Shown: piece by piece, positions 10,611-48,396 of the stretch | Layout of the letters: each line of letters starts with the position of its first letter | How positions within the stretch are numbered: the stretch's first letter is position 1 | Source of the DNA: Acidimicrobiales bacterium | GTDB lineage: Bacteria > Actinomycetota > Acidimicrobiia > Acidimicrobiales > UBA8190 | Direction of reading: 5' to 3' | NCBI GenBank assembly: GCA_030040015.1 | Contig: JASHUM010000123.1 | Location: 37,887-101,886 of the forward strand | DNA length: 64,000 nt | The notes under the pieces: generated by a model | The model's database searches: none | The model's input: the letters and a program-made list of their open reading frames with translations, nothing else | Told to the model about the DNA's origin: nothing | Translations under genes and position numbers: made by a program

Positions 10611-11786
10611 GTGAGCTCGAGGCGCTTCGCCCTGGTGACCGGGGGCGGGACCGGGGGGCATCTCATGCCCGCCCTGGCCGTGGCCCGTGCCCTGGCCGGG
10701 CGCCACTCGGCCGAAGCCGTCGAGCTGGTCGGCTCACGTCGCGGGTTGGAACGCCAGCTCCTGGCCGACGCCGAGGTGCCGGTGACGCTGCTTCCCGGCC
10801 GGGGCATCGCCCGGCGTCTCGATCCTCGCTCCTTGCTGGACAACGCCGCCGCCGTGTGCGCCTTGGCCTGGGCGCTGGTCCTCGCCCTCGTGCTCGTGGC
10901 CCGGCGCCAGCCGCGCGTGGTGGTGGCCGTGGGCGGGTACGCCTCGATCCCGCTGTCGATGGCGGCGGTGGTGGCAGCCGTGCCCGTGGTGCTGGTGAAC
11001 GTCGACGCCCGGCCCGGAGCAGCCAACCGCTTGCTGTCGCGCTTCGCCCGTGCCTCGGCGGTGGCCTTCTCCGGGACCGGCTTGCCCAGGGCAGTGGTCA
11101 CCGGTGCGCCCGTGCGCCCCGAGATCCTGGCCGCCGTGGGCGCCTCGAGCGAGGAACGTCGCTCGGCCCGCCGTGCCCTCGAGCTGCCCGAGGACCGCAA
11201 GGTGGTGGGCGTGGTGGGAGGCTCGCTCGGCGCCCGCCGGCTCAACCAGGCTGCCGTCGAGCTCGCCGGGCGATGGTCGGAGCGGGGGGACGTGGCCCTG
11301 TACCACGTGGTGGGGAGTCGCGACTTCGGCTGGGCCCGCGCCGGCTCGCCGTCCTCGTTCCCGGCCCTGTGCTACCGGCAGGTGGAGTTCGAGGAACACA
11401 TGAGGCTCTTTTATTTGTCTGCGGACGTGGTGGTGTGCCGAGCCGGCGCCCTCACCGTGGCCGAGCTGGCCGTGGTGGGAGTCCCGGCCGTGCTGGTCCC
11501 GCTCCCCGGGGCACCCGGGGACCATCAGCGGGCCAACGCCGAGGTGCTCGCCGGCGTGGGCGGCGCCGTGGTGGTCGAGGACGGTGAGTGCGACGGGGCT
11601 CGGCTCGACGCCGAGCTGACCACTCTCCTCGACGACCCGTCCCGCCTGGCCTCCATGGCGTCGGCGTCGGCCTCGGTGGGCCGCCCCGACGCTCTGGCGG
11701 CGGTGGTGGCGGTGGTGGAGGCGCACGCCCGGCGTCCACCCGAGCCGGCTGGTCCCGTCGGGGCGCTGGAACGAGGGCGGTGGTGA
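10611..11786 (+). CDS. murG: Undecaprenyldiphospho-muramoylpentapeptide beta-N-acetylglucosaminyltransferase MurG
   Basis: GGGTGGHLMPALAVA N-terminal glycine loop and CRAGALTVAELAVVGVPAVLVPLP C-terminal donor-binding region. Confidence 0.9.
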   Translation: MSSRRFALVTGGGTGGHLMPALAVARALAGRHSAEAVELVGSRRGLERQLLADAEVPVTLLPGRGIARRLDPRSLLDNAAAVCALAWALVLALVLVARRQPRVVVAVGGYASIPLSMAAVVAAVPVVLVNVDARPGAANRLLSRFARASAVAFSGTGLPRAVVTGAPVRPEILAAVGASSEERRSARRALELPEDRKVVGVVGGSLGARRLNQAAVELAGRWSERGDVALYHVVGSRDFGWARAGSPSSFPALCYRQVEFEEHMRLFYLSADVVVCRAGALTVAELAVVGVPAVLVPLPGAPGDHQRANAEVLAGVGGAVVVEDGECDGARLDAELTTLLDDPSRLASMASASASVGRPDALAAVVAVVEAHARRPPEPAGPVGALERGRW

Positions 11787-36639: not shown

Positions 36640-37928
36640 GCGGCCCAGCAGCCGACCTCGTCGGCGACCTCGAGTTCCGGGGACTATGGCACCAGGAGGC
36701 GGGCACCAGGTTGTCCGACCGGCTGCGGGCCGGGCCGGTGACGGCCTACGTGGGCTTCGACCCTTCCAACGACAGCCTGCACGTCGGGAACCTGCTCCAG
36801 CTGTGCCTGCTCCGGCGCCTGCAGCTGGCCGGGCACCGGCCCATCTTCCTGGCCGGCGGGGGCACCGCCATGGTGGGCGACCCGGGTGGGAAATCCGAGG
36901 AGCGCGTGCTTCTCTCCGAGGAGCGGCTGCGGGCCAACCTCGAGTCGGTCCGTCCCCAACTCGAGCGCTTCGTCGACCTGGGCGCTCCAGGTGGCTCGGC
37001 CGCCCTGCTGCTCGACAACGGCGACTGGCTTCGACCCCTCACGTTGCTGGGCTTCCTGCGCGACATCGCCAAGCACTTCACCGTCAACGACATGGTGCAC
37101 AAGGAGTCGGTGCGCGCCCGGCTCGAGCGGCCCGACCACGGCATCTCCTTCACCGAGTTCAGCTACATGCTCCTCCAGGCCTACGACTTCCTCCACCTTT
37201 TCGAGCACCACGACTGCAGGCTGCAGCTCGGGGGGAGCGACCAGTACGGCAACATCACCATGGGCATCGAGCTCATCCGCAAGGTGCGCGGGGCCCAGGC
37301 CCACGGGCTGACCACGCCCCTGGTGCTGAAGGCCGACGGGACCAAGTTCGGCAAGACCGAGTCGGGCACGGTGTGGCTCGACTCCACCCGCACCAGCCCT
37401 TTCGCCCTCTACCAATTCCTCTTGCGCACCGAGGACGTCGTGGTGGGCGCCTACCTGCGCTACTTCACGTTCCTCGACCACGCCGCCATCCTCGAGCTCG
37501 ACGCCGCCACCGCCGAGCGCCCGGCCGAGCGCGCCGCCCAGCGGGTGCTCGCTCGTGAGCTGTGCACGCTCGTGCACGGCGAGGACGAAGCGGGCCGGGC
37601 CGAGCAAGCCTCGGAGGCGCTCTACACCGACGAGATCACGTCACTGGACGAGCAGACCCTGCTCGAGGTGTGCGCCGAGGCTCCCACCAGCGAGCGCTCC
37701 CGCGCCGAGCTCGACAGCGGGCTCAGCCTGGTGGACGCCCTGGCCGCCAGCGGCCTGGTGGGGTCGAAGTCCCAGGCCCGCACCACGATCACCCAAGGGG
37801 GGGCGTACGTGAACAACCGTCGCCAGTCCGACCCTGAGCGGGTGCTCCGACGCGAGGACCTCCTTCTCGATCGCTACGTGGTCCTGCGTCGCGGAAGGCG
37901 GGAGTACCACCTGTTGCGGTTCGCATGA
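36636..37928 (+). CDS. tyrS: Tyrosine--tRNA ligase
   Basis: HIGH-type motif SLHVGNL, GGSDQYGNI, KMSKS-type KFGKTESG, and a C-terminal S4 domain. GTG overlaps the SDR stop (GTGA). Confidence 0.95.
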   Translation: MSGPAADLVGDLEFRGLWHQEAGTRLSDRLRAGPVTAYVGFDPSNDSLHVGNLLQLCLLRRLQLAGHRPIFLAGGGTAMVGDPGGKSEERVLLSEERLRANLESVRPQLERFVDLGAPGGSAALLLDNGDWLRPLTLLGFLRDIAKHFTVNDMVHKESVRARLERPDHGISFTEFSYMLLQAYDFLHLFEHHDCRLQLGGSDQYGNITMGIELIRKVRGAQAHGLTTPLVLKADGTKFGKTESGTVWLDSTRTSPFALYQFLLRTEDVVVGAYLRYFTFLDHAAILELDAATAERPAERAAQRVLARELCTLVHGEDEAGRAEQASEALYTDEITSLDEQTLLEVCAEAPTSERSRAELDSGLSLVDALAASGLVGSKSQARTTITQGGAYVNNRRQSDPERVLRREDLLLDRYVVLRRGRREYHLLRFA

Positions 37929-38011
37929 TCGCGCTGGTTGCCATCGCCATCGTCGTCGTGGCCATCGTGGTGGTGGTGTTCGCCGCCACCCTCTTCGGGG
38001 CGCAGCGATGA
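37925..38011 (+). CDS. 28-codon micro-ORF encoding a single hydrophobic helix (MIALVAIAIVVVAIVVVVFAATLFGAQR)
   Basis: Absent from the ORF track because it is too short. Its ATG overlaps the tyrS stop (ATGA) and its TGA overlaps the next gene's ATG (ATGA). G/C-ending codons in 27 of 28 positions. Confidence 0.4.
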   Translation: MIALVAIAIVVVAIVVVVFAATLFGAQR

Positions 38012-38454
38012 GCGAGTCGCTGGGCATCACGGCGGGTCCACCCGAGACCGTGCTGCCACCGGCTCCACCCGAGGCGGTCGCCCGGTTGGACGGTGCCGTG
38101 GCAACGGCGGGCGGGCGCCGGCGCCCGGCGCTCGAGTCCGTGGCGCGCGCCTATCCGCAGTGGCCGGCGGCGTGGGCCGCCTTGGGCACGCTGGCTCTCC
38201 AGAGCGGGGAGGAGGTCCAGGCGTACGCCTACTTCCGAGCGGGCTATCACCGGGGTCTCGACGCACTGCGCAAGGCTGGATGGCGTGGGAGCGGTTACGT
38301 CCGGTGGTCGGCGCCCGACAACCGTGGTTTCCTTCGCTGCCTGCACGGGCTCGAACGGGCCGCTGCCGCCATCGGCGAGGACGACGAAGCCGAGCGCTGC
38401 GCCCTGTTCCTGCGACAGCTCGATCCAGCCTGGCCGCCGGCCGATCCCCGATGA
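38008..38454 (+). CDS. Conserved actinobacterial protein, DUF3151-like
   Basis: 148 aa (…YPQWPAAWAALG…AYAYFRAGYHRGLDALRKAGWRG…FLRCLHGL…AERCALFLRQLDP). This resembles my recollection of DUF3151. Not verified. Confidence 0.55.
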   Translation: MSESLGITAGPPETVLPPAPPEAVARLDGAVATAGGRRRPALESVARAYPQWPAAWAALGTLALQSGEEVQAYAYFRAGYHRGLDALRKAGWRGSGYVRWSAPDNRGFLRCLHGLERAAAAIGEDDEAERCALFLRQLDPAWPPADPR

Positions 38455-38897
38455 CGCGACCGTGCCGCATCGCCCTCTCGGGACTAGCGGCCGGGCTCGC
38501 CCTGACGGCGTGCTCCTCCGGTCCGACGTCGCTCTCCGCTCAGGTGCAGAGCTGGTCGAGCTCGACCGGGTTCCTGAGCGGGCTGCAGCAACTGCGCTCC
38601 GATCTGCGCGGGCTCTCCACCCTCCCGGCCGACAACGCCGGGGAACGGCGTACGGTGTGCGACGTCCTGGTCACTGACGCCCTGAACGACAACGAGCAGC
38701 TCCCCAGTCCCGACTCGACGTTGACGTCGCTGTTGTCCCGGGCGTACACGAAGGCGGCGACGGCGGGGCGGGACTGCTACCGGAGCGCGGCGTCGCTCCC
38801 GGCCACGCAGGCGGACGCCCAGGAGGCCACCAGCCTGCTGGTGGCGGCGGAAGCGCGTTACGACGGGATCACCTCCGAGCTCCCGGGATCCTCGTGA
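38451..38897 (+). CDS. Putative lipoprotein
   Basis: Signal peptide with lipobox MTRPCRIALSGLAAGLALTAC|SSG. ATG overlaps the upstream stop (ATGA). Confidence 0.7.
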   Translation: MTRPCRIALSGLAAGLALTACSSGPTSLSAQVQSWSSSTGFLSGLQQLRSDLRGLSTLPADNAGERRTVCDVLVTDALNDNEQLPSPDSTLTSLLSRAYTKAATAGRDCYRSAASLPATQADAQEATSLLVAAEARYDGITSELPGSS

Positions 38898-39481
38898 CCC
38901 CCGGCCCGGGCCCGGTGGTGGGGCCCGTGCCCGACGGCCGTCAACCGGAGGAGTACGACCGCCTGCGTCGACGAATCCTGTGGTCGCTCCCCACCGGCCT
39001 GTACGTGCTCGGCTCGTGCCGTGGCGCCGAGCGCAACCTCATGACCATCAGCTGGGTCACCCAGGTGTGCCTCGAGCCCAAGCTGGTGGCCGTGGGGATC
39101 GAGTCGACGGCGGTGACCGCCGGCCTGGTGCGGGCCGGGAGGTGCTTCTCGGTGAGCATCCTGCCCCGAAGTGAGCGCACGGTGGTCCGCAAGTTCGCCA
39201 AGCCGGTGCGCGACGCCGAGTTCGACGAGGAGGCGGGAACGGGCACCATGCACGGCGAGGCGGTGCGCATCGCCCCGAGCGGGACACCCGTGCTCTCGGC
39301 GGCGGCGGCGTGGATCGAGTGCGCCGTGCGCCACCAGGCGGAGCTCGGGTCCCACGCACTGTTCCTGGGCGAGGTGACCGACTGTGGCCTCGGTGCGCCG
39401 GGATCGGACCCGGGGCCGGCAGCGAGGGAGATCGGCGAGGTCCTGCGCATGGAGGACACCCGCATGAACTACGGCGGCTAG
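38894..39481 (+). CDS. Flavin reductase family protein (FMN-binding split barrel)
   Basis: LPTGLYVLGSC...NLMTISWVTQVCLEPKLVAVGI...HALFLGEV pattern typical of the flavin reductase-like domain. GTG overlaps the upstream stop (GTGA). Confidence 0.8.
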   Translation: MTPGPGPVVGPVPDGRQPEEYDRLRRRILWSLPTGLYVLGSCRGAERNLMTISWVTQVCLEPKLVAVGIESTAVTAGLVRAGRCFSVSILPRSERTVVRKFAKPVRDAEFDEEAGTGTMHGEAVRIAPSGTPVLSAAAAWIECAVRHQAELGSHALFLGEVTDCGLGAPGSDPGPAAREIGEVLRMEDTRMNYGG

Positions 39482-39491
39482 GTCGGCTCGT

Positions 39492-39725
39492 CTAGGACCG
39501 GTCCTCGGACCGGGGCCGCAAGTCGATGCGCAAGGTCAGGATGCCGTCGTCCAAGCTGGCCTCGGCGTCACCCACCATGGCGAAGTCCATGAAGTCGGTC
39601 TGGGCCTGTTCCATGAACCGGCGCCGCTCGGGCCCCTCCACCGGTGGGAGCCCCCGGTCCCGGACGGCTGCCGCCCGGTCCCGGAAACGAGCCACCATGG
39701 CCTGCGGGTCGAACTCGTCAGGCAC
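39492..39725 (-). CDS. Small hypothetical protein (about 68-77 aa)
   Basis: ORF with coding-like third-position bias. Plausible starts are GTG 39725 or ATG 39698. The longer ORF-track N-terminus (to 40025) looks non-coding. No family recognised. Confidence 0.35.
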   Translation of the reverse strand: MPDEFDPQAMVARFRDRAAAVRDRGLPPVEGPERRRFMEQAQTDFMDFAMVGDAEASLDDGILTLRIDLRPRSEDRS

Positions 39726-39839
39726 CGGGGCGACTGTAGCGGCCGGGGCACACGAGCCCCTGGCCGGGCCCGCCGCCCACGGCCCGCGCAACCCGGCTGA
39801 GCTGGGCCTGGGCCCGAAGGTGGGCCAACGGGTGGAAGG

Positions 39840-39845
39840 TAGAAT
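39840..39845 (+). promoter_or_regulatory. Candidate -10 element TAGAAT upstream of the 69-aa gene
   Basis: Near-consensus TAGAAT in an otherwise GC-rich spacer, about 70 nt upstream of GTG 39915. Confidence 0.3.
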
Positions 39846-39914
39846 GGGCGGGTCGCTGGCGACATGACTGCACAGGCAGTCCGTGGCTGGTCGGGCCCGA
39901 CGAAGGAGTCGCTC

Positions 39915-40124
39915 GTGAAAAAGGGTCGGCATCGCCGCTTCGAAGAGGCACGCTCGCTGAAGCGTTCCGTGGCCACCGCCAATCGCCGCTGTCCCGAGTG
40001 CGGTGCCGAGCCCGAGGACGAGCACGCGTCGTGGTGCATGGCGGAGTCCGACGAGTTCGAGCAGATCCTGGGCATCGACTCGGGGGACGACGACACCGGC
40101 GACGACGACCCGCTGAGCGACTGA
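39915..40124 (+). CDS. Small protein, basic N-terminus / CPxC...WC motif / poly-acidic C-terminus (69 aa)
   Basis: GTG 39915 preceded by a perfect SD GAAGGAG (39902-39908). VKKGRHRRFEEARSLKR...CPECGAEPEDEHASWC...DSGDDDTGDDDPLSD. Confidence 0.55.
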   Translation: MKKGRHRRFEEARSLKRSVATANRRCPECGAEPEDEHASWCMAESDEFEQILGIDSGDDDTGDDDPLSD

Positions 40125-40134
40125 TCAGGGCGCC

Positions 40135-40974
40135 TCAGCGGCGGCGCAACGCCGGATGGGGCAACGGGGTGACCGTTGGTGCCGGCTCCTCGCCGAGCCC
40201 GGTGGCCGTGGACCGGGCCTCGAAGTAGCGCAGCAGTCGCCGGTACACCTTTTCGCCCACCAGGGCCACGAGCTCGTCCTTGAGCTCGCGGTACACGGGC
40301 CGGTCCCCCACGAAGGCGTCGGGCGCCTCGGTGCACCACCAGTGGAACTCGGCGCCGCCGTCCCCCCAGTCACGACGGTCCCACTGCCGGATGACAGAGG
40401 TCACGTGCCCGTCGTCAGCCACCTCGTCCTCGCGTCGGAGCGGCAGCTGCCAGCACACCTCGGGCTTGAGCTCGAGGGGTGCCGTTCCCCGCTCCAACGC
40501 GGCGCGGTGCAAGGCGCAGCCGGCACCGCCGGGGAACCCGGGGCGGTTCAGGAAGATGCAGGCTTGTCGCACCACCCTGGTGGACAGCTCACCGCCGGCC
40601 GTGTGCTCGAAGATGCGCAGCTTCTTGCCCTGCCGCGGTTGTCCCTGCTTCCAGAACTGCCACTGTTCGGGCGTCAAGGTGGCAGCCGCCTTCTCCACCC
40701 GGCGGGCGTCCTTGCCTCCGGTGAGGTGTGCCCCGTACGAGCAGCAGCCCTGCTCGAGCTCGGGTGCCGGGCCGGTGAGCACGCCTTGGCACCCCCGACC
40801 GAAGATGCACGTCCAGTTGCTCTCCAGGAAGGTCAGGTCGAAGAGCCAGGTGCGCTCTTCCTCGGGGTCGGGGAAGCTCACCCACTCGTGCGTGTCTGCG
40901 GGGGCGCGTTTCCACGCCGCCACCTCGACGCCCGTCGCCGCACCGTGGCGGAGTCGGACCGGGGCGCGCGCCAT
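40135..40974 (-). CDS. Cysteine-cluster protein (279 aa, 8 Cys), possibly a YkgJ-like Fe-S/Zn-binding fold
   Basis: Its ATG shares one nucleotide with the radical SAM stop (TGATG). Cys pattern is C-x6-C-x14-CC ... C-x13-C-x20-C ... WWC. CIFLNRPGFPGGAGCALH...KPEVCWQLP is reminiscent of the CxxCxxCC zinc/iron-chelating domain. Confidence 0.65.
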   Translation of the reverse strand: MARAPVRLRHGAATGVEVAAWKRAPADTHEWVSFPDPEEERTWLFDLTFLESNWTCIFGRGCQGVLTGPAPELEQGCCSYGAHLTGGKDARRVEKAAATLTPEQWQFWKQGQPRQGKKLRIFEHTAGGELSTRVVRQACIFLNRPGFPGGAGCALHRAALERGTAPLELKPEVCWQLPLRREDEVADDGHVTSVIRQWDRRDWGDGGAEFHWWCTEAPDAFVGDRPVYRELKDELVALVGEKVYRRLLRYFEARSTATGLGEEPAPTVTPLPHPALRRR

Positions 40975-42434
40975 CAGCGCACTCCCGCCGTGCTCGACAG
41001 CGGTGTCGTCGTGGACGGCGCACCTCGCCGCTGGGAGGACGAGGGCTCGGCACAGCAGAACCAGGCCTCCGACAGCCGGGGGCGGCGTCCGGGCTCGAGC
41101 GAGGACTGCAGCGTGGGGAGGGCGGCGGCGATCGGCCGCAGTGCGCCGGAGCCGAGCACGTCGCAGACCTCCCTGCGAAGCGCGTCGTGGGCGGCGCCGG
41201 GGTCCCGGTTCTCGCTCCCGGCCCGCTCCGCCAGCGCCGCCAGCCGGCCCTGGAGCTCGTCGAGCCGAGGATCGGCGCTTCGCCACGACCAGGTCAGGTG
41301 CTCCGGGTCGTAGGGGCCGAGGCGTCCCTCGAGGGCGTCGCCGTCGAGCAGCAACGAGCCGGGCGGCACGAGAAGGCGGATGCTCCACTGCACGGGGTCC
41401 ACGTTCCCCACCAGGTCGCAGCGCTCGACGAGCTCCACCAAGTCGGCCAGGTCGGCCGGTGTCGTCCACGGCGTGAAGGGGAGGAGCGACGGCCGCGGCT
41501 CGATGCCGCTCGAGCGCAGCACCTCCACCGCCTCGACCTCATCGGCGCAGGTGTGTCCCTTGTCGAGGAGGGCCAGCAGCTCGTCGCTCGCCGACTCGAA
41601 GGCGGACACCACGAAGAGGCATCCCATCGAGGCCATCTCGGGCCAGGCGTGGCGATGGGCGAGCACGTGGCTGACCTTGGCCGTGACGTCGAAGGTCAGG
41701 TCGGGGAATGCGTGGTGCACCGCGGCGAGCACCCGCCTCGAGTGCTGGGGCCCGTTCAGGAAGTCGGGGTCCCCAAAGGTGACGTGTCGCGCTCCCAGGC
41801 CGACCAGCTGGGCCACGTCGGCCAGGACGTCCTCCACGCCGACCAGGCGCGTCCGGCCGTCGTAGACCACCGGGACCGGGCAGTGGCGGCAGCGATGGGC
41901 ACATCCGTGACTCGCCTCGACGTACCCGGCCACGCGCTCCTCGCCGTCGACCAACAGCCGGGCGTAGCGATCCAGCGGCGGCACGAGGCGCCGTGCCGGC
42001 AGGCCGAAACGCTGGCGGTCCAGGCGCACGCGGACCCGCTGGGCCGGGGCGGGAGCGTCACCATGGCCCTCGGCCAGGTCGTCGGCCAGTGCCACGAGTT
42101 CAGCCTCGTACTCGCCGATCACGCGCACGTCCGAGCCGGCACCGTGGTCCGATCCGTCGTCGACACCGGCGTACAGCCCGTACAGCCACACCGGGACGTC
42201 ACGCCGATGCCGGCGCACCGACGTGATGGCGTCACGAGCCAGCTGCAGCGCCGTGTGCATGGGAACCGACACGGCCACGGCGTCGGCCCACTGCACGCTC
42301 GGCGGGTCGAGGGTCTCCACGGCGAGGTCGAGGCAGCGCACCTCGTGCCCGGCGCGCGTCAGCGCGCCAGCCGGAGAGGCCAGGTGCAGTGGTTGGTGCC
42401 CGAGCTCGTAGGTGGAGAGCAGCAGGACGCGCAC
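40974..42434 (-). CDS. B12-binding-domain radical SAM protein with C-terminal CCAEP motif (CUAEP/CCAEP-tail radical SAM family)
   Basis: N-terminal Rossmann-like B12-binding-type domain (MRVLLLSTYELGHQPL...). Radical SAM cluster motif CAHRCRHC (CxxxCxxC). WFCCAEP lies 22 residues from the C-terminus (codons at 41043-41057). Confidence 0.85.
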   Translation of the reverse strand: MRVLLLSTYELGHQPLHLASPAGALTRAGHEVRCLDLAVETLDPPSVQWADAVAVSVPMHTALQLARDAITSVRRHRRDVPVWLYGLYAGVDDGSDHGAGSDVRVIGEYEAELVALADDLAEGHGDAPAPAQRVRVRLDRQRFGLPARRLVPPLDRYARLLVDGEERVAGYVEASHGCAHRCRHCPVPVVYDGRTRLVGVEDVLADVAQLVGLGARHVTFGDPDFLNGPQHSRRVLAAVHHAFPDLTFDVTAKVSHVLAHRHAWPEMASMGCLFVVSAFESASDELLALLDKGHTCADEVEAVEVLRSSGIEPRPSLLPFTPWTTPADLADLVELVERCDLVGNVDPVQWSIRLLVPPGSLLLDGDALEGRLGPYDPEHLTWSWRSADPRLDELQGRLAALAERAGSENRDPGAAHDALRREVCDVLGSGALRPIAAALPTLQSSLEPGRRPRLSEAWFCCAEPSSSQRRGAPSTTTPLSSTAGVR

Positions 42435-42486
42435 CAGCGCAACCGTAGCGGGCGAGCGTCGCGACAGGTTCGATCGTCGCTGGCGC

Positions 42487-43758
42487 TCACGAGCACGTGG
42501 CTCGCGACTGCGTCACTGCGCCGACGGGATCGGGCTCGATGCGCACCTTGAGGCGTCTTCCTGCCTCTCGCAGCGACCGTTCGACCTCGTCGGGCTCACG
42601 AGCGCGGGCGAAGACGAACCCGAGGTACCGGTTCCCCTCGGGAGGCGGGGACACGAAACGACCCGGGGCGACGGTGATGTCCACGGCGTGGACTCCGGGG
42701 ACCTCGAGCGCCTCCTCCTGCCCGTCCACCCGGCGCAGGAGCCCGGGACCGGGGATGGGGATCATGAGCACGCCCGAGGCGCCCGCCACCGGGGCCCGGT
42801 CCGGGACGCTCAGCCCCAGCGCCTGGGCCAACACGAGCTCCTCCAGGCTTCGCCCGTGCCCGAAGGCGAGGGCCCGGCCGCAGTGCCCGCCGATGGTCCG
42901 CGCCGCCACCTCGATGACGCTGGCCTTGCCCTCCGACACGCGCAGCTCGCCGTGCACCGGGCCCTCGACCAGCCCGAGCGACCGGGTGGCGGCGGCCAAG
43001 GTGCGGCGCGCTGCCTCCTGGTCGGCGGGTGACAGCCGGCTCGGGGTCACGTAGATCGTCTCCTCGAAGGCGGGGCCGTCCAGGGGGTCGGGCTTGTCGA
43101 AGACGGCGAGCACCTCGAGCTCCCCGTCGGACAGGAGTCCCTCGACCGCCACCTCGGGGCCCGGCACGAACCGTTCGACGAGGAGCGACGCTTCGGGATC
43201 GACGCCGGCCTCGGTGGCGATGGACCGCACGCGCCGGGCGACGGCAGCCACCTCGCCCGGGCCCTCGGCCCGGAGCACCCCCTGGCTCGCCGACAACGTG
43301 GCCGGCTTCACCACACAGGGGAACCCCACGCCCGCGGCGTGGCGCACCACCTCGTCGTCGCTCGCCGAAGCCGGGATCTCGGCGAAGGTCGGTTGGCCCA
43401 CCTCGCCCCGGTCGAGGAGCCGCCGCATGTGCAGCTTGTCGGCCGCCGCCGCCAGTGCCTCGGGTGGGTTGTGGCGCAGTCCCAGCATGCGAGCGGCGCG
43501 ACCGGCCACCTGGGCACCCCGGTCGTCGACGGCCACCACGGCGTCGATCCCCAGCGCGGCGTCGTGGGCGGTGACGGCCCGGGCTGCGCCCTCGGGGTCG
43601 TCGAGGTCGACCTGGAGGCTCCGGGCGCCCATGACTTCGGCCAGGGGCGGAGCCTCCTCCCCGGCCACGATCACCTCCACGCCCAGCCGGCGCGCCGCCT
43701 CGAGGAAGTCGCCGGCCTTGTAGGTGGAGGACGGGACGAGCAGGAGGACGCGGGCCAC
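42487..43758 (-). CDS. ATP-grasp domain protein (carboxylate-amine ligase type)
   Basis: Pre-ATP-grasp Rossmann region VLLLVPSSTYKAGDFLEAARRLGVEVIV. DKLHMRRLL...FPCVVKP...LVERFVPGPEVAVEGL...IEVAAR is typical of the ATP-grasp fold. Start is GTG 43758 or 43785. Confidence 0.8.
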   Translation of the reverse strand: MARVLLLVPSSTYKAGDFLEAARRLGVEVIVAGEEAPPLAEVMGARSLQVDLDDPEGAARAVTAHDAALGIDAVVAVDDRGAQVAGRAARMLGLRHNPPEALAAAADKLHMRRLLDRGEVGQPTFAEIPASASDDEVVRHAAGVGFPCVVKPATLSASQGVLRAEGPGEVAAVARRVRSIATEAGVDPEASLLVERFVPGPEVAVEGLLSDGELEVLAVFDKPDPLDGPAFEETIYVTPSRLSPADQEAARRTLAAATRSLGLVEGPVHGELRVSEGKASVIEVAARTIGGHCGRALAFGHGRSLEELVLAQALGLSVPDRAPVAGASGVLMIPIPGPGLLRRVDGQEEALEVPGVHAVDITVAPGRFVSPPPEGNRYLGFVFARAREPDEVERSLREAGRRLKVRIEPDPVGAVTQSRATCS

Positions 43759-43778
43759 CCCCCTATGATGGCGGCGAG

Positions 43779-44441
43779 GTGCCACCCGTGGAACCGGAAC
43801 CCGCCGGCACCGGAGCGCCGGTGCCCCCCGTGATCGACGTCACCCCGGCGGCGCGCGCCGTCGTGCTCGAGGCCCGCGCCGAAGAGGATGGTGCCGAGAG
43901 CCTGGCCCTGTGGGTCGAGGTCAGCGGCGCCCAGGGGGCGACGTTCAGCTACGACATCTACTTCCAGGCGCGCGCCGACGCCTCGGACGGCGACGCCGTC
44001 TCCGACCTCGGCGGTCTGGCCGTGGTGGTGCCCGAGACCAGCGTCACCCACCTGAGCGGGGCGCGGCTCGACTACTCCGAGGAGGGCGAGGGCGGGCTCG
44101 TCATCGTGAACCCCAACACCCCGTCCCGGGCCGAACGGGTGCTCCCCGAAGGAGCCGACCTTTCCAGCGAGCTGGCCCAGCGCATCGTGGCCGTGCTCGA
44201 AGAGCAGGTGAACCCTTCCATCGCCATGCACGGCGGCTACGCCGAGCTCGTGGGGGTGGACGCCGGCACCGCCTACCTGCAGTTGAGCGGAGGGTGTCAG
44301 GGCTGCGGCCTGGCCAAGGTCACCCTGAGCCAGGGCATCGAGGTGGCGCTGCGCGACGCCATTCCCGAGTTGGTGTCGGTCGTCGACGTGACCGACCACG
44401 CCAGCGGGACCAACCCCTACTTCGAAGCAGCCAAGAAGTAG
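43779..44441 (+). CDS. NfuA-type Fe-S cluster carrier (degenerate A-type domain plus Nfu CxxC domain)
   Basis: C-terminal Nfu domain VNPSIAMHGGYAELVGVD...LQLSGGCQGCGLAKVTL. The N-terminal HesB/IscA-like domain lacks the Cys ligands. Confidence 0.8.
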   Translation: MPPVEPEPAGTGAPVPPVIDVTPAARAVVLEARAEEDGAESLALWVEVSGAQGATFSYDIYFQARADASDGDAVSDLGGLAVVVPETSVTHLSGARLDYSEEGEGGLVIVNPNTPSRAERVLPEGADLSSELAQRIVAVLEEQVNPSIAMHGGYAELVGVDAGTAYLQLSGGCQGCGLAKVTLSQGIEVALRDAIPELVSVVDVTDHASGTNPYFEAAKK

Positions 44442-44451
44442 GGTCGCCGCC

Positions 44452-45138
44452 ATGGAGGCGGCGGTCACGGGCGTGTGCGCCGCAGGGGGCCTCGTGCTCG
44501 GTGCCCCACTCGAGTTCGTGGCCGAGCGGGTCGCGGCCCGCACGTCGCTGGCGCCACCGTTGCGCATCGAGCGGGGCCGTCGCGCCCTCGTGCTCGGCGC
44601 GTCGTCGGCTGTCGTGTGCGGCGCCTTCGCCGCCCGCCTGGGCGACGACGTCGTCCTGTCGGCCTACTGCGTGCTGGCCTTGGCGTTGGTGGCGATGTCG
44701 GCCGTCGACCTCGAGCGGTACCTGATCCCCAACCGGATCCTCTATCCGGCCGCCGGGTTGGTCCTGCCCCTCTTCGTGGTGTCCTCGGCGGTCGACCATC
44801 GTTGGGGTTCCCTGGCCAGAGCCGCCATCGCCGCTGGCGCGGCCTTCGCCGCCTTTCTGGTCGTCCACCTGGCCGTGCCCCAGGGCATGGGCTTCGGTGA
44901 CGTCCGCCTGGCCGGGCTGCTCGGGTTCGCCACCGGATGGCTCGGACTCGGGCATGCCTTCGTCGGGTTCTTCGCCGCCTTCGTGCTGGGAGCGGCGCTC
45001 GGCCTCGGGGTCATGGCCGCCGGTCGTGGCGGGCGCAAGACGCGCATCCCCTTCGGCCCCTTCCTGGCTGCCGGGGCGGTGGTGTCGGTGTTGTGGGGAA
45101 GCCCGATCTCGAACGCCCTGTTCCATCGGGGGATGTAG
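44452..45138 (+). CDS. A24-family prepilin (type IV leader) peptidase
   Basis: Polytopic membrane protein with both catalytic Asp motifs (AVDLERYLIPN and GMGFGDVRLAG) and IPFGPFLAAG. No N-terminal methyltransferase or zinc domain. Confidence 0.8.
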   Translation: MEAAVTGVCAAGGLVLGAPLEFVAERVAARTSLAPPLRIERGRRALVLGASSAVVCGAFAARLGDDVVLSAYCVLALALVAMSAVDLERYLIPNRILYPAAGLVLPLFVVSSAVDHRWGSLARAAIAAGAAFAAFLVVHLAVPQGMGFGDVRLAGLLGFATGWLGLGHAFVGFFAAFVLGAALGLGVMAAGRGGRKTRIPFGPFLAAGAVVSVLWGSPISNALFHRGM

Positions 45139-45160
45139 AGGTGGGCGGTAAATTCGCGGC

Positions 45161-46369
45161 ATGCTCCGCTTCCTCACCGCCGGTGAGTCGCACGGCAAGG
45201 CCCTGGTGGTGGTCGTGGAGGGCCTGCCGTCAGGGCTCCCCGTCACCGCCGAGGAGGTAGCCGGCGAGCTGGCGAGACGCCGGCTGGGCTTCGGCCGTGG
45301 ACCGCGGATGCGCTTCGAGGCGGACGAGATCGAGTTGTTGGCCGGCGTCCGCCACGGACGCACCCTGGGCTCGCCGGTGGCGATCGTGATCGCCAACACC
45401 GAATGGCCCAAATGGGAGGAGGAGATGTCGCCTCGTCCCGGGCGCCCGTCGAAGGTGCTCACCGCCCCGCGCCCGGGGCACGCCGATCTTGCCGGGATGC
45501 AGAAGTACGGCTTCGCCGACGCCCGCGACGTGCTCGAGCGGGCCTCGGCGCGCGAGACGGCGGCACGGGTGGCGGCCGGGTCGCTGGCCAAGGCGCTGCT
45601 GTCGCAGCTGGGGATGACGGTGCTGAGCCACGTCGTCGCACTGGGGGGCGAGCACGCTGCCGACGGGAGGCGCCCCGAGCCCGGGCAGCTCGACACCGTC
45701 GACGAGTCGCCGGTGCGCTGCTTCGACCCCGAGGCCGAGACGCGCATGGTGGCCGCCGTCAAGGCGGCCGCCAAAGCCGGGGACTCACTCGGTGGCGTGG
45801 TCGAGGTGCTCGCCTACGGCGTGCCCGTCGGTCTCGGGAGCCACGTGCACTGGGACCGCCGGCTCGACGGTCTCTTGGCCCAGGCGCTCATGAGCGTCCA
45901 GGCGGTGAAGCACGTCGAGATCGGCGAGGGGGCCAGCGTGACCGAGCGACGCGGTTCGGAGGCGCACGACCCCATCTCGTGGGACGCCGAGGCCCAGCGC
46001 TACCGCCGGCGCACCACCCGTGCCGGAGGGATCGAGGGTGGCATCTCGACGGGTGAGCTGGTGGTGGCCAAGGTCGGCATGAAGCCGCTCGCCACGCTGA
46101 ACCGGCCCGTGCTGGGCACGGTGGACGTGGCCACCAAGGAGGAGACGGTGTCGTTCAAGGAACGCACCGACGTCACCGCCGTGCCGGCCATGGGTGTGGT
46201 GGCCGAGACCATGACCGCGCTCGTGCTGGCGTCCGAGGCGCTGCGCAAGTTCGGGGGGGACTCGCTGGCCGAGGTGGTGCGCAACTTCGAGGGAACTCGC
46301 CGGCACCTGGACGAAGCGCCCTCGGCCGTTCCCGGCGAGGCGCCTTCGCCGGCCTCCTCCGGTGGCTGA
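45161..46369 (+). CDS. aroC: Chorismate synthase
   Basis: [15 protein letters not shown]..., [19 protein letters not shown] and GGISTGE motifs. Confidence 0.95.
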
Positions 46370-46898
46370 CCGTCTGGTCCTCGTCGGCATGATGGGGACC
46401 GGCAAGACGACGGTGGGGAACGAGGTGGCGGCCCGTCTCGGGTGGCGCTTCGCCGACGTGGACGAGCTGGTCGAAGAGGGAAGCGGCCGCAGCGTCCCGG
46501 AGCTGTTCGCCTCGGTCGGGGAGGCCGGGTTCCGGGCCCTCGAGGCGCGCTGGCTGGCCGAGTCGCTGGCCGAATCCGGTCCCGCCGTGGTGGCGGTGGG
46601 GGGTGGAGCCGTGCTGGATCCCGGCAACCGCACCCGCATCTGCGGTGCCGGCACGGTGGTGTGGCTGCGGGCCAGGCCCGAGACGTTGCAGCTCCGGGTG
46701 GGCGCCGGCGCCGGCCGCCCGCTGTTGTCCGCCGGTGAGGGCGAGCCGGAGGAGGTCCTTGGCCGGCTGGCCGCGGCGCGCTCCCGGTGGTACGAGGAAG
46801 TGGCCGACGTCGTGGTGGACGTGGACGACCTCTCCGTCGAACAAGTGGCGCAGCGGGTGTGCGCGCTGGCCGGAGCTGCGTGGGAGGGACCCCGCTGA
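46362..46898 (+). CDS. aroK: Shikimate kinase
   Basis: P-loop [18 protein letters not shown] and GGGAV motifs. GTG overlaps the aroC 3' end. Confidence 0.9.
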
Positions 46899-47941
46899 TC
46901 ACCGTCCCGGTCGAGCTCGGCCCTCGCTCCTACGACGTGACGATCGGCGCCGGTGCCAGCCGGCTGCTCGCCTCGGTGCTCCCGTCCGGGGTGCGTCAGG
47001 CCGCCGTCGTGACCCAGGCCGCCGTCCTGACGTCCGTCGACGCCGGGGTGCCGAGCGACGTCTTCGTCCTCCCCGACGGCGAGAAGGCCAAGACGCTTTC
47101 CTCGGTGGAGGAGCTGTGCCGGGGCTTCGCCCGGGCCGGGCTGGCCCGGGGCGACGTCGTGGTGGCGGTGGGAGGCGGCGTGGTGACCGACGTCGCCGGA
47201 TTCGCCGCCGCCAGCTACCTGCGGGGGGTGGCGCTCGTCAACGTGCCCACCACGCTGGTGGGACAGGTCGACGCCGCCATCGGGGGCAAGACGGGGGTGA
47301 ACCTCCCCGAGGGCAAGAACCTCCTCGGCGCCTACTGGCAGCCGGGCGCCGTGCTGTGCGACACCGACGCCCTGGCCACGCTTCCCGAGCGCGAGTGGGC
47401 GTCGGGACGCGGGGAGATGGCCAAGTGCGCCTTCCTCGAGCCTCGCCCCGGGGCCGGCGCCCCCCGGGCCGCCTTGGCCGAGATGACGCTCGAGGATCAG
47501 GTGGCGTGGTGCGTCGCCCTGAAGGCGGCGGTGGTGTCCGAGGACGAGCGGGAAGGCGGCCGTCGGATGCTGCTCAATTACGGCCACACCCTCGCTCATG
47601 CGCTGGAGGCGCTGGGCCTGGCCGGCGGTCCGGTCGACCTCCGCCACGGCGAGGCGGTGGGGGTCGGCCTCGTCTTCGCCGCCCGGCTGGCCCGCCGCCT
47701 CGGGCGCATCGACGACGCCCGGGTCGAGGAGCACGTCACCCTCCTCGACGCCTTCGGGCTCCCGCAGGAGATCCCCGGCGGGGTGCGCTCCGGCGAGGTG
47801 CTCGAGTACATGGCCCGCGACAAGAAAGCGCGCCACGACCTCACCTTCGTCCTCGACGGGCCCCGAGGCGTCGAGCCCGTGCACGGAGTGGGGGAAGGGG
47901 ACGTGGTGGCTACCCTGAGCGCCATGGGAGCCCTGTCGTGA
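46880..47941 (+). CDS. aroB: 3-dehydroquinate synthase
   Basis: GEKAKT, GGGVVTDVAGFAAASYLRGV, NYGHTLAHALE and HGEAV metal/NAD motifs. Start is GTG 46880 or CTG 46895. Confidence 0.9.
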   Translation: MGGTPLITVPVELGPRSYDVTIGAGASRLLASVLPSGVRQAAVVTQAAVLTSVDAGVPSDVFVLPDGEKAKTLSSVEELCRGFARAGLARGDVVVAVGGGVVTDVAGFAAASYLRGVALVNVPTTLVGQVDAAIGGKTGVNLPEGKNLLGAYWQPGAVLCDTDALATLPEREWASGRGEMAKCAFLEPRPGAGAPRAALAEMTLEDQVAWCVALKAAVVSEDEREGGRRMLLNYGHTLAHALEALGLAGGPVDLRHGEAVGVGLVFAARLARRLGRIDDARVEEHVTLLDAFGLPQEIPGGVRSGEVLEYMARDKKARHDLTFVLDGPRGVEPVHGVGEGDVVATLSAMGALS

Positions 47942-48396
47942 CCGGGCCGGGGCCGCTCGTGCTGCTCCTCTCCGGGCCCAACCTGGACCTGCTCGGCGAG
48001 CGCCAACCCGAGGTGTACGGAAAGCGGACCCTCGACGAGCTGGCCCAGGACGCCGCCGAGGAGGCGAGCGGGCTCGGCCTGTCCCTGGAGCACCACCAGA
48101 CCAATCACGAGGGTGAGCTGGTCGAGCTGGTGCACGGTGCCCGGGGACGGGCGCAGGCCATCGTCGTGAACGCCGGCGCCCTGAGCCATTACTCCTGGAC
48201 CCTGCACGACGCGCTGGCCGCGTTCGAGGGTGTGGTGGTGGAACTGCATCTCACCAACCCCGCCGCTCGTGAGCCCTGGCGCCACACGTCGGTGGTGGCT
48301 CCGGTCGCCGACGGTGTGGTGGCCGGCTTCGGTCCCCTCGGGTACCGGCTGGCGGTGGTGGCGGTGGCTCGGCTCCTGGCGGACACCGGGCGATGA
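47938..48396 (+). CDS. aroQ: Type II 3-dehydroquinate dehydratase
   Basis: LSGPNLDLLGERQPEVYG, HQTNHEGELV, NAGALSHYS and HLTNPAAREPWRH motifs. GTG overlaps the aroB stop (GTGA). Confidence 0.92.
   Translation: MTGPGPLVLLLSGPNLDLLGERQPEVYGKRTLDELAQDAAEEASGLGLSLEHHQTNHEGELVELVHGARGRAQAIVVNAGALSHYSWTLHDALAAFEGVVVELHLTNPAAREPWRHTSVVAPVADGVVAGFGPLGYRLAVVAVARLLADTGR

Follow-up and report, generated by a model that had tools for sequence, protein, structure and literature searches.

A conserved gene pair for an L-amino acid ligase-type ATP-grasp protein and an ArsL-related radical SAM enzyme in Acidimicrobiales points to an undescribed small-molecule pathway

This work concerns a group of genes in a 64,000-nucleotide stretch of contig JASHUM010000123.1 of an Acidimicrobiales bacterium (hereafter, the window; G+C content ~72%). 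The genes encode an ATP-grasp protein, a radical S-adenosylmethionine (SAM) enzyme with a CCAEP motif near its C-terminus, and a protein with 8 cysteines. The principal result is that the ligase and the radical SAM enzyme form a pair that is conserved well beyond the surroundings of the window, and this pair points to an undescribed small-molecule pathway. Judging from the sequences, we see in it a putative pathway of the ArsL radical SAM type in which the tail and the partners differ. The window holds the minimal, Cys-type, core-genome version of the pathway, one of thousands of near-identical arrangements.

Results

Organization of the locus

The preliminary description of this region, made from the sequence alone, reported three co-directional minus-strand genes, a 52-nt gap between the first and the second, a TGATG overlap between the second and the third, and the motifs CAHRCRHC and WFCCAEP in the radical SAM protein; all of these, with their coordinates, were verified in the sequence. 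The ATP-grasp gene comes first, followed by the radical SAM gene and then by the gene of the 8-Cys protein. Each has homologs in the thousands, and the three are therefore real genes rather than chance open reading frames (ORFs). The features of the unit are as follows.

43779..44441, plus strand: NfuA-like iron-sulfur (Fe-S) carrier gene, 220 aa from the first GTG
42487..43758, minus strand: L-amino-acid-ligase-type ATP-grasp gene, 423 aa
42435..42486, minus strand: spacer from the ATP-grasp stop to the radical SAM start, 52 nt, read from sequence
40974..42434, minus strand: CUAEP/CCAEP-tail radical SAM gene, sister of ArsL, 486 aa, GTG start
41880..41903, minus strand: codons for CxxxCxxC (C178, C182, C185), the [4Fe-4S] cluster ligands; 3 Cys invariant in 27 homologs
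41043..41057, minus strand: codons for CCAEP (C460-C461-A-E-P), the signature tail; invariant in 27 homologs
40135..40974, minus strand: 8-Cys protein gene, Rv0495c/DUF3109-related, 279 aa

An alternative start of the ATP-grasp gene, the GTG at 43785, would give a protein of 432 aa. The start at 43758, chosen in the preliminary description, is the better one, because a Shine-Dalgarno-like run, AGGGGG, lies 4 nt upstream and the N-termini of homologs match there, beginning 2–5 residues ahead of a conserved LLL..PS..Y segment. The start of the NfuA-like gene possibly lies up to ~50 nt downstream of its first GTG. The radical SAM stop and the ATG of the 8-Cys gene have one base in common (cgcTGATGg). 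A scan of positions 38000–46000 against Rfam gave no match, hence no riboswitch was detected, and a scan of positions 39400–44500 found no sigma-70-like promoter and no intrinsic terminator, so that the limits of the transcript did not show clearly.

Conservation of the gene neighborhood

One genome per GTDB species was scanned, which yielded at least 548 genomes with a relative; the best 80 loci were kept. These loci, all from metagenome-assembled genomes (MAGs), are best matches and hence near the window; they are labelled Acidimicrobiales, Solirubrobacterales/Thermoleophilia, Chloroflexota and others. Neighboring genes were counted by tblastn, with 65 informative loci as the denominator for the ATP-grasp and 8-Cys genes and 63 for the NfuA-like gene. 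A phmmer search with the radical SAM protein of the window additionally returned 375 representatives, each standing for a 50%-identity cluster, with E-values of 1e-30 or lower.

In 55 of the 65 loci with enough upstream sequence, the radical SAM gene is immediately preceded by the ATP-grasp gene on the same strand (53 recognized automatically, plus L008 and L028, which failed just the automatic gap filter), and the median gap between the aligned ends of the two genes in related loci is 46 nt. Loci with the ligase upstream come from Acidimicrobiia, Thermoleophilia and MAGs labelled "Chloroflexota"; in L043 and L057, an ATP-grasp gene is found within 7 kb of the radical SAM gene. The NfuA-like gene, divergent from the ATP-grasp gene, adjoins it in 54 of the 63 loci scored for this gene. 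The genes on its far side vary between lineages, as do the genes beyond the radical SAM gene outside the Acidimicrobiales clade of the window, and the 8-Cys gene is present 3′ of the radical SAM gene in just 10 of 65 loci, all belonging to that one syntenic clade. For these reasons, the widely conserved unit consists of the ligase gene followed by the radical SAM gene, with the NfuA-like gene divergent from them, and the 8-Cys gene is a clade-specific third cistron outside this module. The three-gene operon proposed in the preliminary description was thus right in joining the ATP-grasp and radical SAM genes; it missed the NfuA-like gene, and the trio as such is not a conserved neighborhood.

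The same survey bears on the possibility that the three genes are functionally unrelated neighbors, merely inherited together within a conserved aro-nfuA-...-tyrS region. The stretch from aroK to tyrS is indeed wholly syntenic within Acidimicrobiales, as observed in the ten closest loci of this order; this synteny is the sole evidence linking the 8-Cys gene to the others, and the locus contains no regulator or transporter. However, the adjacency of ligase and radical SAM genes survives changes of the flanks, of the gene order and of the phylum, a fusion of the two proteins exists (see below), and the 52-nt gap and the 1-nt overlap fit a single transcript. We therefore consider inherited synteny a very improbable explanation of the unit.

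The radical SAM enzyme and its relation to ArsL

The radical SAM protein of the window passes the equivalog model NF040546 (CUAEP/CCAEP-tail radical SAM (seleno)protein) with 532.4 bits against a cut-off of 500, residues 3–469 being aligned with positions 1–466 of the 468 positions of the model. The second-best NCBIfam match is the ArsL model NF040542, which scores 260.7 bits over residues 3–396, that is, over all but the tail, and whose cut-off of 450 is not reached. The comparison with family models thus confirmed the family assignment and brought out a kinship with ArsL that is absent from the preliminary description. Direct alignment with P0387, a genuine ArsL-family member (655.6 bits on NF040542, C-terminus KRCCLKC), gives 32% identity over 408 aa (E 2e-66). 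The closest relatives of the window protein are found in Acidimicrobiales MAGs.

The window protein shares with ArsL an N-terminal Rossmann-like "B12-binding" domain, the CxxxCxxC radical SAM core and a Cys-bearing C-terminal tail. It differs in the tail itself, WFC(C/U)AEP with two reactive residues as opposed to RCCLKC with three Cys; in ~65 additional residues (395–450) ahead of the tail; and in its genomic setting, which is not an ars operon and in which the partners are amino-acid ligase, NfuA-like and Rv0495c-like genes. No methyltransferase or permease gene of the kind that neighbors arsL (arsM/arsQ type) is present in the window unit. The enzyme is not ArsL, because it falls short of ArsL in both the model score and the tail.

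Pfam matches to Radical_SAM (PF04055, 51.8 bits) and B12-binding (PF02310, 36.6 bits) are both over the cut-offs. The CAHRCRHC motif, within the segment GCAHRCRHCPV, provides C178, C182 and C185, and the only Cys residues invariant throughout 27 homologs are these three cluster ligands and the two Cys of the tail. An AlphaFold model of the enzyme (predicted local distance difference test, pLDDT, 84) has AprD4 (6fd2) as its top fold match (TM 0.64–0.69), followed by TsrM, OxsB and MgmA. In sequence, AprD4, TsrM, OxsB and MgmA/QCMT are 13–23% identical to the window protein, and AprD4 has no Cys tail. According to a 2026 review, AprD4 and ArsL homologs possess Rossmann-like domains that do not bind cobalamin. 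Given this statement and the top fold match, "B12-type" is a domain label and not a cofactor assignment; the N-terminal B12-binding-type domain noted in the preliminary description holds as a Pfam call. On the same two grounds, a reading of the enzyme as a cobalamin-dependent methyltransferase was dropped as unsupported.

It should be noted that the only paper mentioning NF040546 calls the family "uncharacterized", its structure and function being "not well known". No study assigning a function to NF040546 or to CUAEP/CCAEP proteins was found in the literature searched, including that on ArsL homologs, which bears out the earlier remark that the family exists in name only.

The C-terminal CC/CU-AEP motif

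The WFCCAEP motif occupies residues 458–464 (codons 41043–41063), with CCAEP at residues 460–464. It is not strictly C-terminal: in the window protein, CCAEP is followed by 22 residues (SSSQRRGAPSTTTPLSSTAGVR), compared with 18–24 in the clade of the window and 8–15 in most relatives. The "tail" of the preliminary description is therefore correct as a motif and incorrect as the end of the protein.

The second tail Cys is a site of Cys/selenocysteine (Sec) interchange. In the window, C461 is encoded by TGT (41052–41054, minus strand), while many relatives have TGA, read as Sec, at this position. Three observations establish the site. First, an in-frame C-TGA-AEP is present in 29 of the 80 loci (including L013, L014, L018-L020, L026, L027, L029-L031, L038 and L040). 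Second, gene callers cut Sec-type proteins at ..W[FY]C, and, of the 87 representative proteins whose C-terminus could be read, 37 stop at W[FY]C, immediately behind the first Cys of the tail. Third, a hairpin, GAGGRCC-AGUUY-GGYCCUC, begins 12 nt after the UGA in Sec-type loci and looks like a bacterial selenocysteine insertion sequence (SECIS) element. In total, ~40% of family members have Sec in place of the second tail Cys.

The segment that follows AEP is also conserved (T-E/D-x-Q-F/L-G-P-L, often with an acidic ending), and the AlphaFold model predicts a flexible tail, with pLDDT values of 27–59 beyond residue 460. These two features, together with the ligase-radical SAM fusion described below, would suit a scheme in which the ATP-grasp protein ligates an amino acid to the radical SAM tail or to another protein, as in the LysW/LysX and RimK systems, or in which a self-alkylated tail Cys or Sec acts as a covalent carrier. 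In our opinion, such a protein-bound target is improbable. The ligase has the architecture of an L-amino acid ligase (LAL) and is not of the RimK/LysX type (rimK_fam, 18.8 bits); the conservation after AEP in Sec-type genes is largely accounted for by the SECIS-like hairpin; the extreme C-terminus differs between clades; and the distant clusters contain enzymes of free amino acids. A ThiS/MoaD-like GG tail, suggested by the "GGR/GGS/GGK" ending of the clade of the window, was likewise dropped, being not conserved outside the clade; moreover, the matching codons of the window hold a GGGAG Shine-Dalgarno-like run before the start of the next gene.

In one family member, P0283 (623 aa), insertions of HVARGTLHVARGT / STPHVSAS recur at the N-terminus and within the N-terminal domain; they may be an assembly or translation artifact or a repeat insertion.

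The ATP-grasp ligase

The ATP-grasp protein contains the complete LAL domain set, with Pfam matches to ATP-grasp_4 (99.2 bits), LAL_C2 (65.8 bits) and ATPgrasp_N (38.8 bits), each over its cut-off; it reaches none of the NCBIfam equivalog cut-offs. Among solved structures, the L-amino-acid ligase BL00235 comes closest to it (3VOT; E 7e-31, 111 bits, full-length), followed by BacD. BL00235 makes Met-Gly and Met-Met, with Met accepted as the N-terminal residue, and so can be said to accept a 2-amino-4-(X)-butanoate. The three-domain architecture is that of BL00235, BacD, RizA, TabS and DdaF, whereas the similarity is low, as the score against BL00235 indicates; a further difference is that the window gene, in a core-genome position, has a radical SAM gene as its partner, and that the window contains neither an exporter gene nor a resistance gene. 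Among LALs are some that assemble antimetabolite dipeptides: BacD is annotated as alanine--anticapsin ligase, and the dapdiamide synthase DdaF is another such enzyme.

The type of the ligase also helps to decide whether the unit might be a cluster for a ribosomally synthesized and post-translationally modified peptide (RiPP), its precursor being modified by both enzymes of the pair. Pairs of radical SAM and ATP-grasp enzymes are generally known from some RiPP pathways, and an ATP-binding cassette (ABC) exporter with a C39 peptidase domain is present in two distant clusters of the family. Nevertheless, no conserved short precursor-like ORF exists in the window unit or in the 80 related loci, and the ORF list agrees with the preliminary description that no precursor peptide, transporter or regulator is encoded in or beside the unit. 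In the radical SAM enzyme, neither a peptide-binding domain nor a SPASM domain is recognizable, and the enzyme groups with ArsL and AprD4. A RiPP cluster is thus scarcely credible, and we reject it on account of the missing precursor ORF and the LAL-type ligase. A small-molecule pathway, one of the routes that the preliminary description had named in preference to a classical RiPP, fits better, also with regard to the amino-acid enzymes and exporters of distant clusters.

Fusions and distant family members

In P0382 (850 aa), an LAL ligase is fused to the radical SAM domain, which ends in a CCAAP tail; this fusion is a single representative, known from its protein sequence. Five 90%-identity clusters (P0268 and P0390-P0393; 60–73% mutual identity) combine the radical SAM enzyme with a C-terminal MerB domain (for P0268, NF040546 623 bits and PF03243 54.7 bits). 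The long "fusions" P0345, P0272, P0329 and P0351 were set aside, because the additional stretches resemble low-complexity sequence translated out of frame rather than real protein.

Nine distant contexts were inspected, in which the radical SAM protein is ~40% identical to that of the window. They were the top hits of one MerB-fusion query. Their gene content is listed below (PLP, pyridoxal phosphate; MFS, major facilitator superfamily).

Catenulispora rubra: MerR, MerB, ArsR; radical SAM-DUF169-ArsR-LAL ligase-PLP decarboxylase-ABC exporter
7.3-Mb genome: MerB-DUF169; radical SAM-methyltransferase-aminotransferase-unknown-MerB-LAL-MFS-LAL
Thermoanaerobaculia MAG (Sec form): MerR, CopZ-like gene; radical SAM-DUF169-LAL/GNAT-decarboxylase-MerT
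Nonomuraea: GCS2 ligase; radical SAM-methyltransferase-aminotransferase-unknown-MerB-DUF169-MerB
L088: bare radical SAM-LAL pair with the ligase downstream; YggX-like iron-trafficking gene adjoining
L089 and L090: DUF169 with MerB twice, TauD/PhyH oxygenases, other ligases
L083: MerB-fusion radical SAM beside sulfotransferase; PhyH oxygenase, P450 and AMP-binding ligase nearby
P0268 contig: MerB-fusion radical SAM beside sulfotransferase; second MerB gene

DUF169 and MerB each occur in six of the nine contexts and an LAL ligase in four; another ATP-dependent ligase (GCS2, CP_ATPgrasp or AMP-binding) is present in four of the five contexts that have no LAL. Over the full length, the LAL ligases found in Catenulispora and in the Thermoanaerobaculia MAG share 37–38% identity with that of the window; both are encoded downstream of the radical SAM gene. 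The methyltransferase found directly after the radical SAM gene in distant clusters recalls ArsL, which is accompanied by ArsM. The radical SAM gene of L083 (4792-6921) is the MerB-fusion form, and its surroundings resemble a natural-product cluster.

Among the 80 nearer loci, DUF169 is found near the radical SAM gene in 13. A gene of the SaoD/DsrE family (121 aa; NF040913, 194 bits against a cut-off of 152) lies convergent to and directly after the radical SAM gene in ~17 Solirubrobacterales-type loci (L011, L015-L017, L019-L022, L025, L026, L032-L036). The SaoD/DsrE family has been tied to metal-import and organometallic contexts (Haft 2022 preprint). The SAO system and the HgcAB "CU-motif" proteins treated in the same preprint resemble the present family in the rare Cys-Sec dipeptide, in the SaoD/DsrE-family neighbor of Solirubrobacterales loci and in the MerB-like lyase domains, and DUF169 is also drawn beside Nitrospina hgcAB. 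Unlike them, the window has no SAO genes and no hgcAB, and its tail contains Cys instead of Sec. No MerB, DUF169 or SaoD-like gene was found by tblastn in the 64-kb window; for this reason, the metal flavor of the distant clusters is not directly transferable to the window locus.

The NfuA-like protein and the 8-Cys protein

The NfuA-like protein consists of an N-terminal domain that resembles A-type (IscA-like) Fe-S carriers but has no cysteines, and a C-terminal Nfu domain with a CxxC. Pfam NifU scores 71.9 bits, while the NfuA model TIGR03341 gives 102 bits against a cut-off of 269, with an alignment (residues 19–215) that covers both domains. Matches in the Protein Data Bank (PDB) are Nfu domains and the IscA-like HI1723. 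Most simply, the NfuA-like protein would supply or repair the [4Fe-4S] cluster of the radical SAM enzyme. Its adjacency to the pair is confined to the branch to which the window belongs. A different lineage offers another example of a gene for Fe-S maintenance adjoining the pair: in L088, a YggX-like "Iron_traffic" gene (11355-11693) lies beside the bare radical SAM-ligase pair, and aconitase and peroxiredoxin genes are located within a few kb of it.

The protein of the third gene contains, as the preliminary description had it, exactly 8 Cys in 279 aa, all of which are invariant in 20 homologs. Its match to PF11307 (Rv0495c, formerly DUF3109) is below the gathering cut-off (15.6 bits, E 0.015 by hmmscan, against 33.5), whereas homologs 62–85% identical to it bear a recorded PF11307 match. 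The family is named after Rv0495c of Mycobacterium tuberculosis, the loss of which leads to an oxidized cytosol and disturbed redox balance. An AlphaFold model based on 20 homologs has a pLDDT of 41, and a sequence search of the PDB returned noise only. Because the overlap between the radical SAM stop and the 8-Cys start is conserved within the Acidimicrobiales clade, the two genes are likely co-transcribed there. A role as redox or metal partner is possible for the 8-Cys protein, as is mere co-transcription with its neighbors; the surveyed loci provide no evidence for it as an obligate partner.

Flanking genes

The flanking genes are ordinary and are syntenic in Acidimicrobiales. On one side, 36684-37928, 38008-38454 and 38894-39481 (all on the plus strand) correspond to tyrS and to genes for a DUF3151 protein and a flavin reductase. 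In the opposite flank, a type IV prepilin-peptidase-like gene (44452-45138, plus strand) is followed by a shikimate-pathway block (45161-48396, plus strand) with chorismate synthase and shikimate kinase (Pfam matches in L081/L082); by our reading, further ORFs of this block encode 3-dehydroquinate synthase and dehydroquinase. The housekeeping blocks of the preliminary description are accordingly confirmed for most of the flanks; the exception is the NifU-like gene at 43779-44441, which is part of the conserved neighborhood. Downstream of the 8-Cys gene, one further feature is listed.

39864..40124, plus strand: convergent small ORF with CPECG motif, 86 aa

The stop of this ORF is 10 nt from that of the 8-Cys gene and marks the downstream end of the minus-strand unit. 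Its product (KKGRHRRFEEARSLKR...CPECG...acidic tail) has no family assignment; the ORF is kept in 12 syntenic Acidimicrobiales loci and is annotated as a gene in L081 and L082. In another ORF, 39492-40025 (minus strand), conservation is confined to the C-terminal ~70–80 residues (DEFDP..MVERFR..RGLPP.EGPE..F.EQAQ.DFMD), so that the true gene probably has a length of ~80–90 aa; it has no match in Pfam or NCBIfam.

Discussion

Proposed chemistry of the ligase and radical SAM pair

To our knowledge, ArsL is the only radical SAM enzyme with a CxxxCxxC motif that has been shown to make a 3-amino-3-carboxypropyl (ACP) radical and a carbon-metalloid bond. ArsL cleaves SAM into methylthioadenosine and an ACP radical or Fe-C organometallic species and adds the ACP fragment to As(III) bound by the three Cys of its RCCLKC tail. 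Removal or mutation of this tail abolishes product formation with SAM cleavage retained, and ArsL without substrate releases 2-aminobutyrate from the quenched ACP radical. Since the window enzyme matches ArsL except for the tail, the most economical reading, by analogy, would be the same chemistry with a different acceptor.

We therefore propose, tentatively and with a confidence somewhat short of even, that the core of the locus is a two-enzyme small-molecule module in which an ArsL-like radical SAM enzyme would transfer the ACP group of SAM to a soft atom and an LAL-type ATP-grasp protein would process the product. The radical SAM enzyme would cut the C-gamma-S bond of SAM as does ArsL, giving methylthioadenosine and an ACP fragment on the [4Fe-4S] cluster held by C178, C182 and C185, a cluster that the NfuA-like protein would load or repair. 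The flexible Cys460-Cys461 pair (Cys-Sec in relatives) would present to this fragment a soft nucleophile, candidates for which are a bound metal or metalloid, a chalcogen, and a persulfide or perselenide. The outcome would be a non-proteinogenic amino acid resembling methionine, a 2-amino-4-(X)-butanoate. The ligase would activate a carboxylate with ATP and link this amino acid through an amide bond to a second amino acid or amine.

Each part of this proposal has its own basis. A reactive tail residue is suggested by the invariance of the tail and by the alternation of its second Cys with Sec. The constant ligase partner and the P0382 fusion argue for coupling by the ligase, and the aminotransferase, PLP decarboxylase, methyltransferase and MFS/ABC exporters of distant clusters argue for a small-molecule or amino-acid pathway. 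That a soft element is bound is suggested by the MerB fusions and separate MerB genes, and by the DUF169, MerR/ArsR, MerT and SaoD/DsrE neighbors.

Several points weigh against this proposal. The ACP-type cleavage would be extrapolated from 32% identity to the ArsL family, and the window tail offers two Cys compared with the three by which ArsL binds As(III). The radical SAM gene is solitary in 8 of 65 loci, and the nine distant contexts are a small, biased sample. The NfuA-like adjacency is missing from the distant clusters and could be inherited synteny. Moreover, MerB, DUF169, a methyltransferase, an exporter and a metal regulator are absent from the window, and the housekeeping setting fits a primary-metabolic role better than an antimetabolite. 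Finally, a redox or H-atom-donating function is just as conceivable for the Cys-Sec pair.

This last point leads to the main rival explanation, which keeps the small-molecule module and takes the Cys-Cys/Cys-Sec tail for a redox-active or H-atom-donating arm rather than a substrate-holding site. Either a 5′-deoxyadenosyl radical would modify the substrate, or the ACP radical would be quenched to 2-aminobutyrate for use by the ligase. The GCUG tail of thioredoxin reductase provides a comparison for such an arm. Cys/Sec interchange is typical of redox-active residues, and the release of 2-aminobutyrate by substrate-free ArsL, the presence of two tail Cys with no third ligand and the lack of metal-related genes in the window locus all agree with it, as does the Rv0495c-like protein, whose gene is probably co-transcribed, Rv0495c being linked to redox homeostasis in M. 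tuberculosis. On the other hand, the tail binds the substrate in ArsL, the closest characterized relative; the MerB fusions and the MerB, MerT, MerR, DUF169 and SaoD neighbors indicate a bound soft element; and the methyltransferase right after the radical SAM gene mirrors the ArsL-ArsM arrangement. Taking both sides together, we regard a redox arm as unlikely.

A more specific version of the soft-atom transfer, which we consider doubtful, is that NF040546 enzymes join ACP to an element other than arsenic (Se, Te, Sb, Hg or persulfide S) held on the tail, and that the ligase converts the product into a dipeptide, yielding new organo-element amino acids. If true, this would mean that an organo-element dipeptide pathway, so far unseen by chemistry, is common in soil Actinomycetota, Chloroflexota and Acidobacteriota.

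Significance

In the literature searched, we found no description of the linkage to the ligase and NfuA-like genes, of the fusions, or of the association with MerB and DUF169. NF040546 is a large sister group of ArsL, and the ArsL homology gives a concrete mechanistic lead. The question it poses is testable: which element or nucleophile is presented by the tail, and which dipeptide results? Cultured carriers of the family are available in Catenulispora rubra and Nonomuraea sp. Answering it might uncover new chemistry of carbon-heteroatom bonds and show what selenocysteine can do in a radical SAM enzyme. It might also bring to light a new antimetabolite, or a new metabolite for handling metals, in soil bacteria that are abundant but poorly represented in culture.

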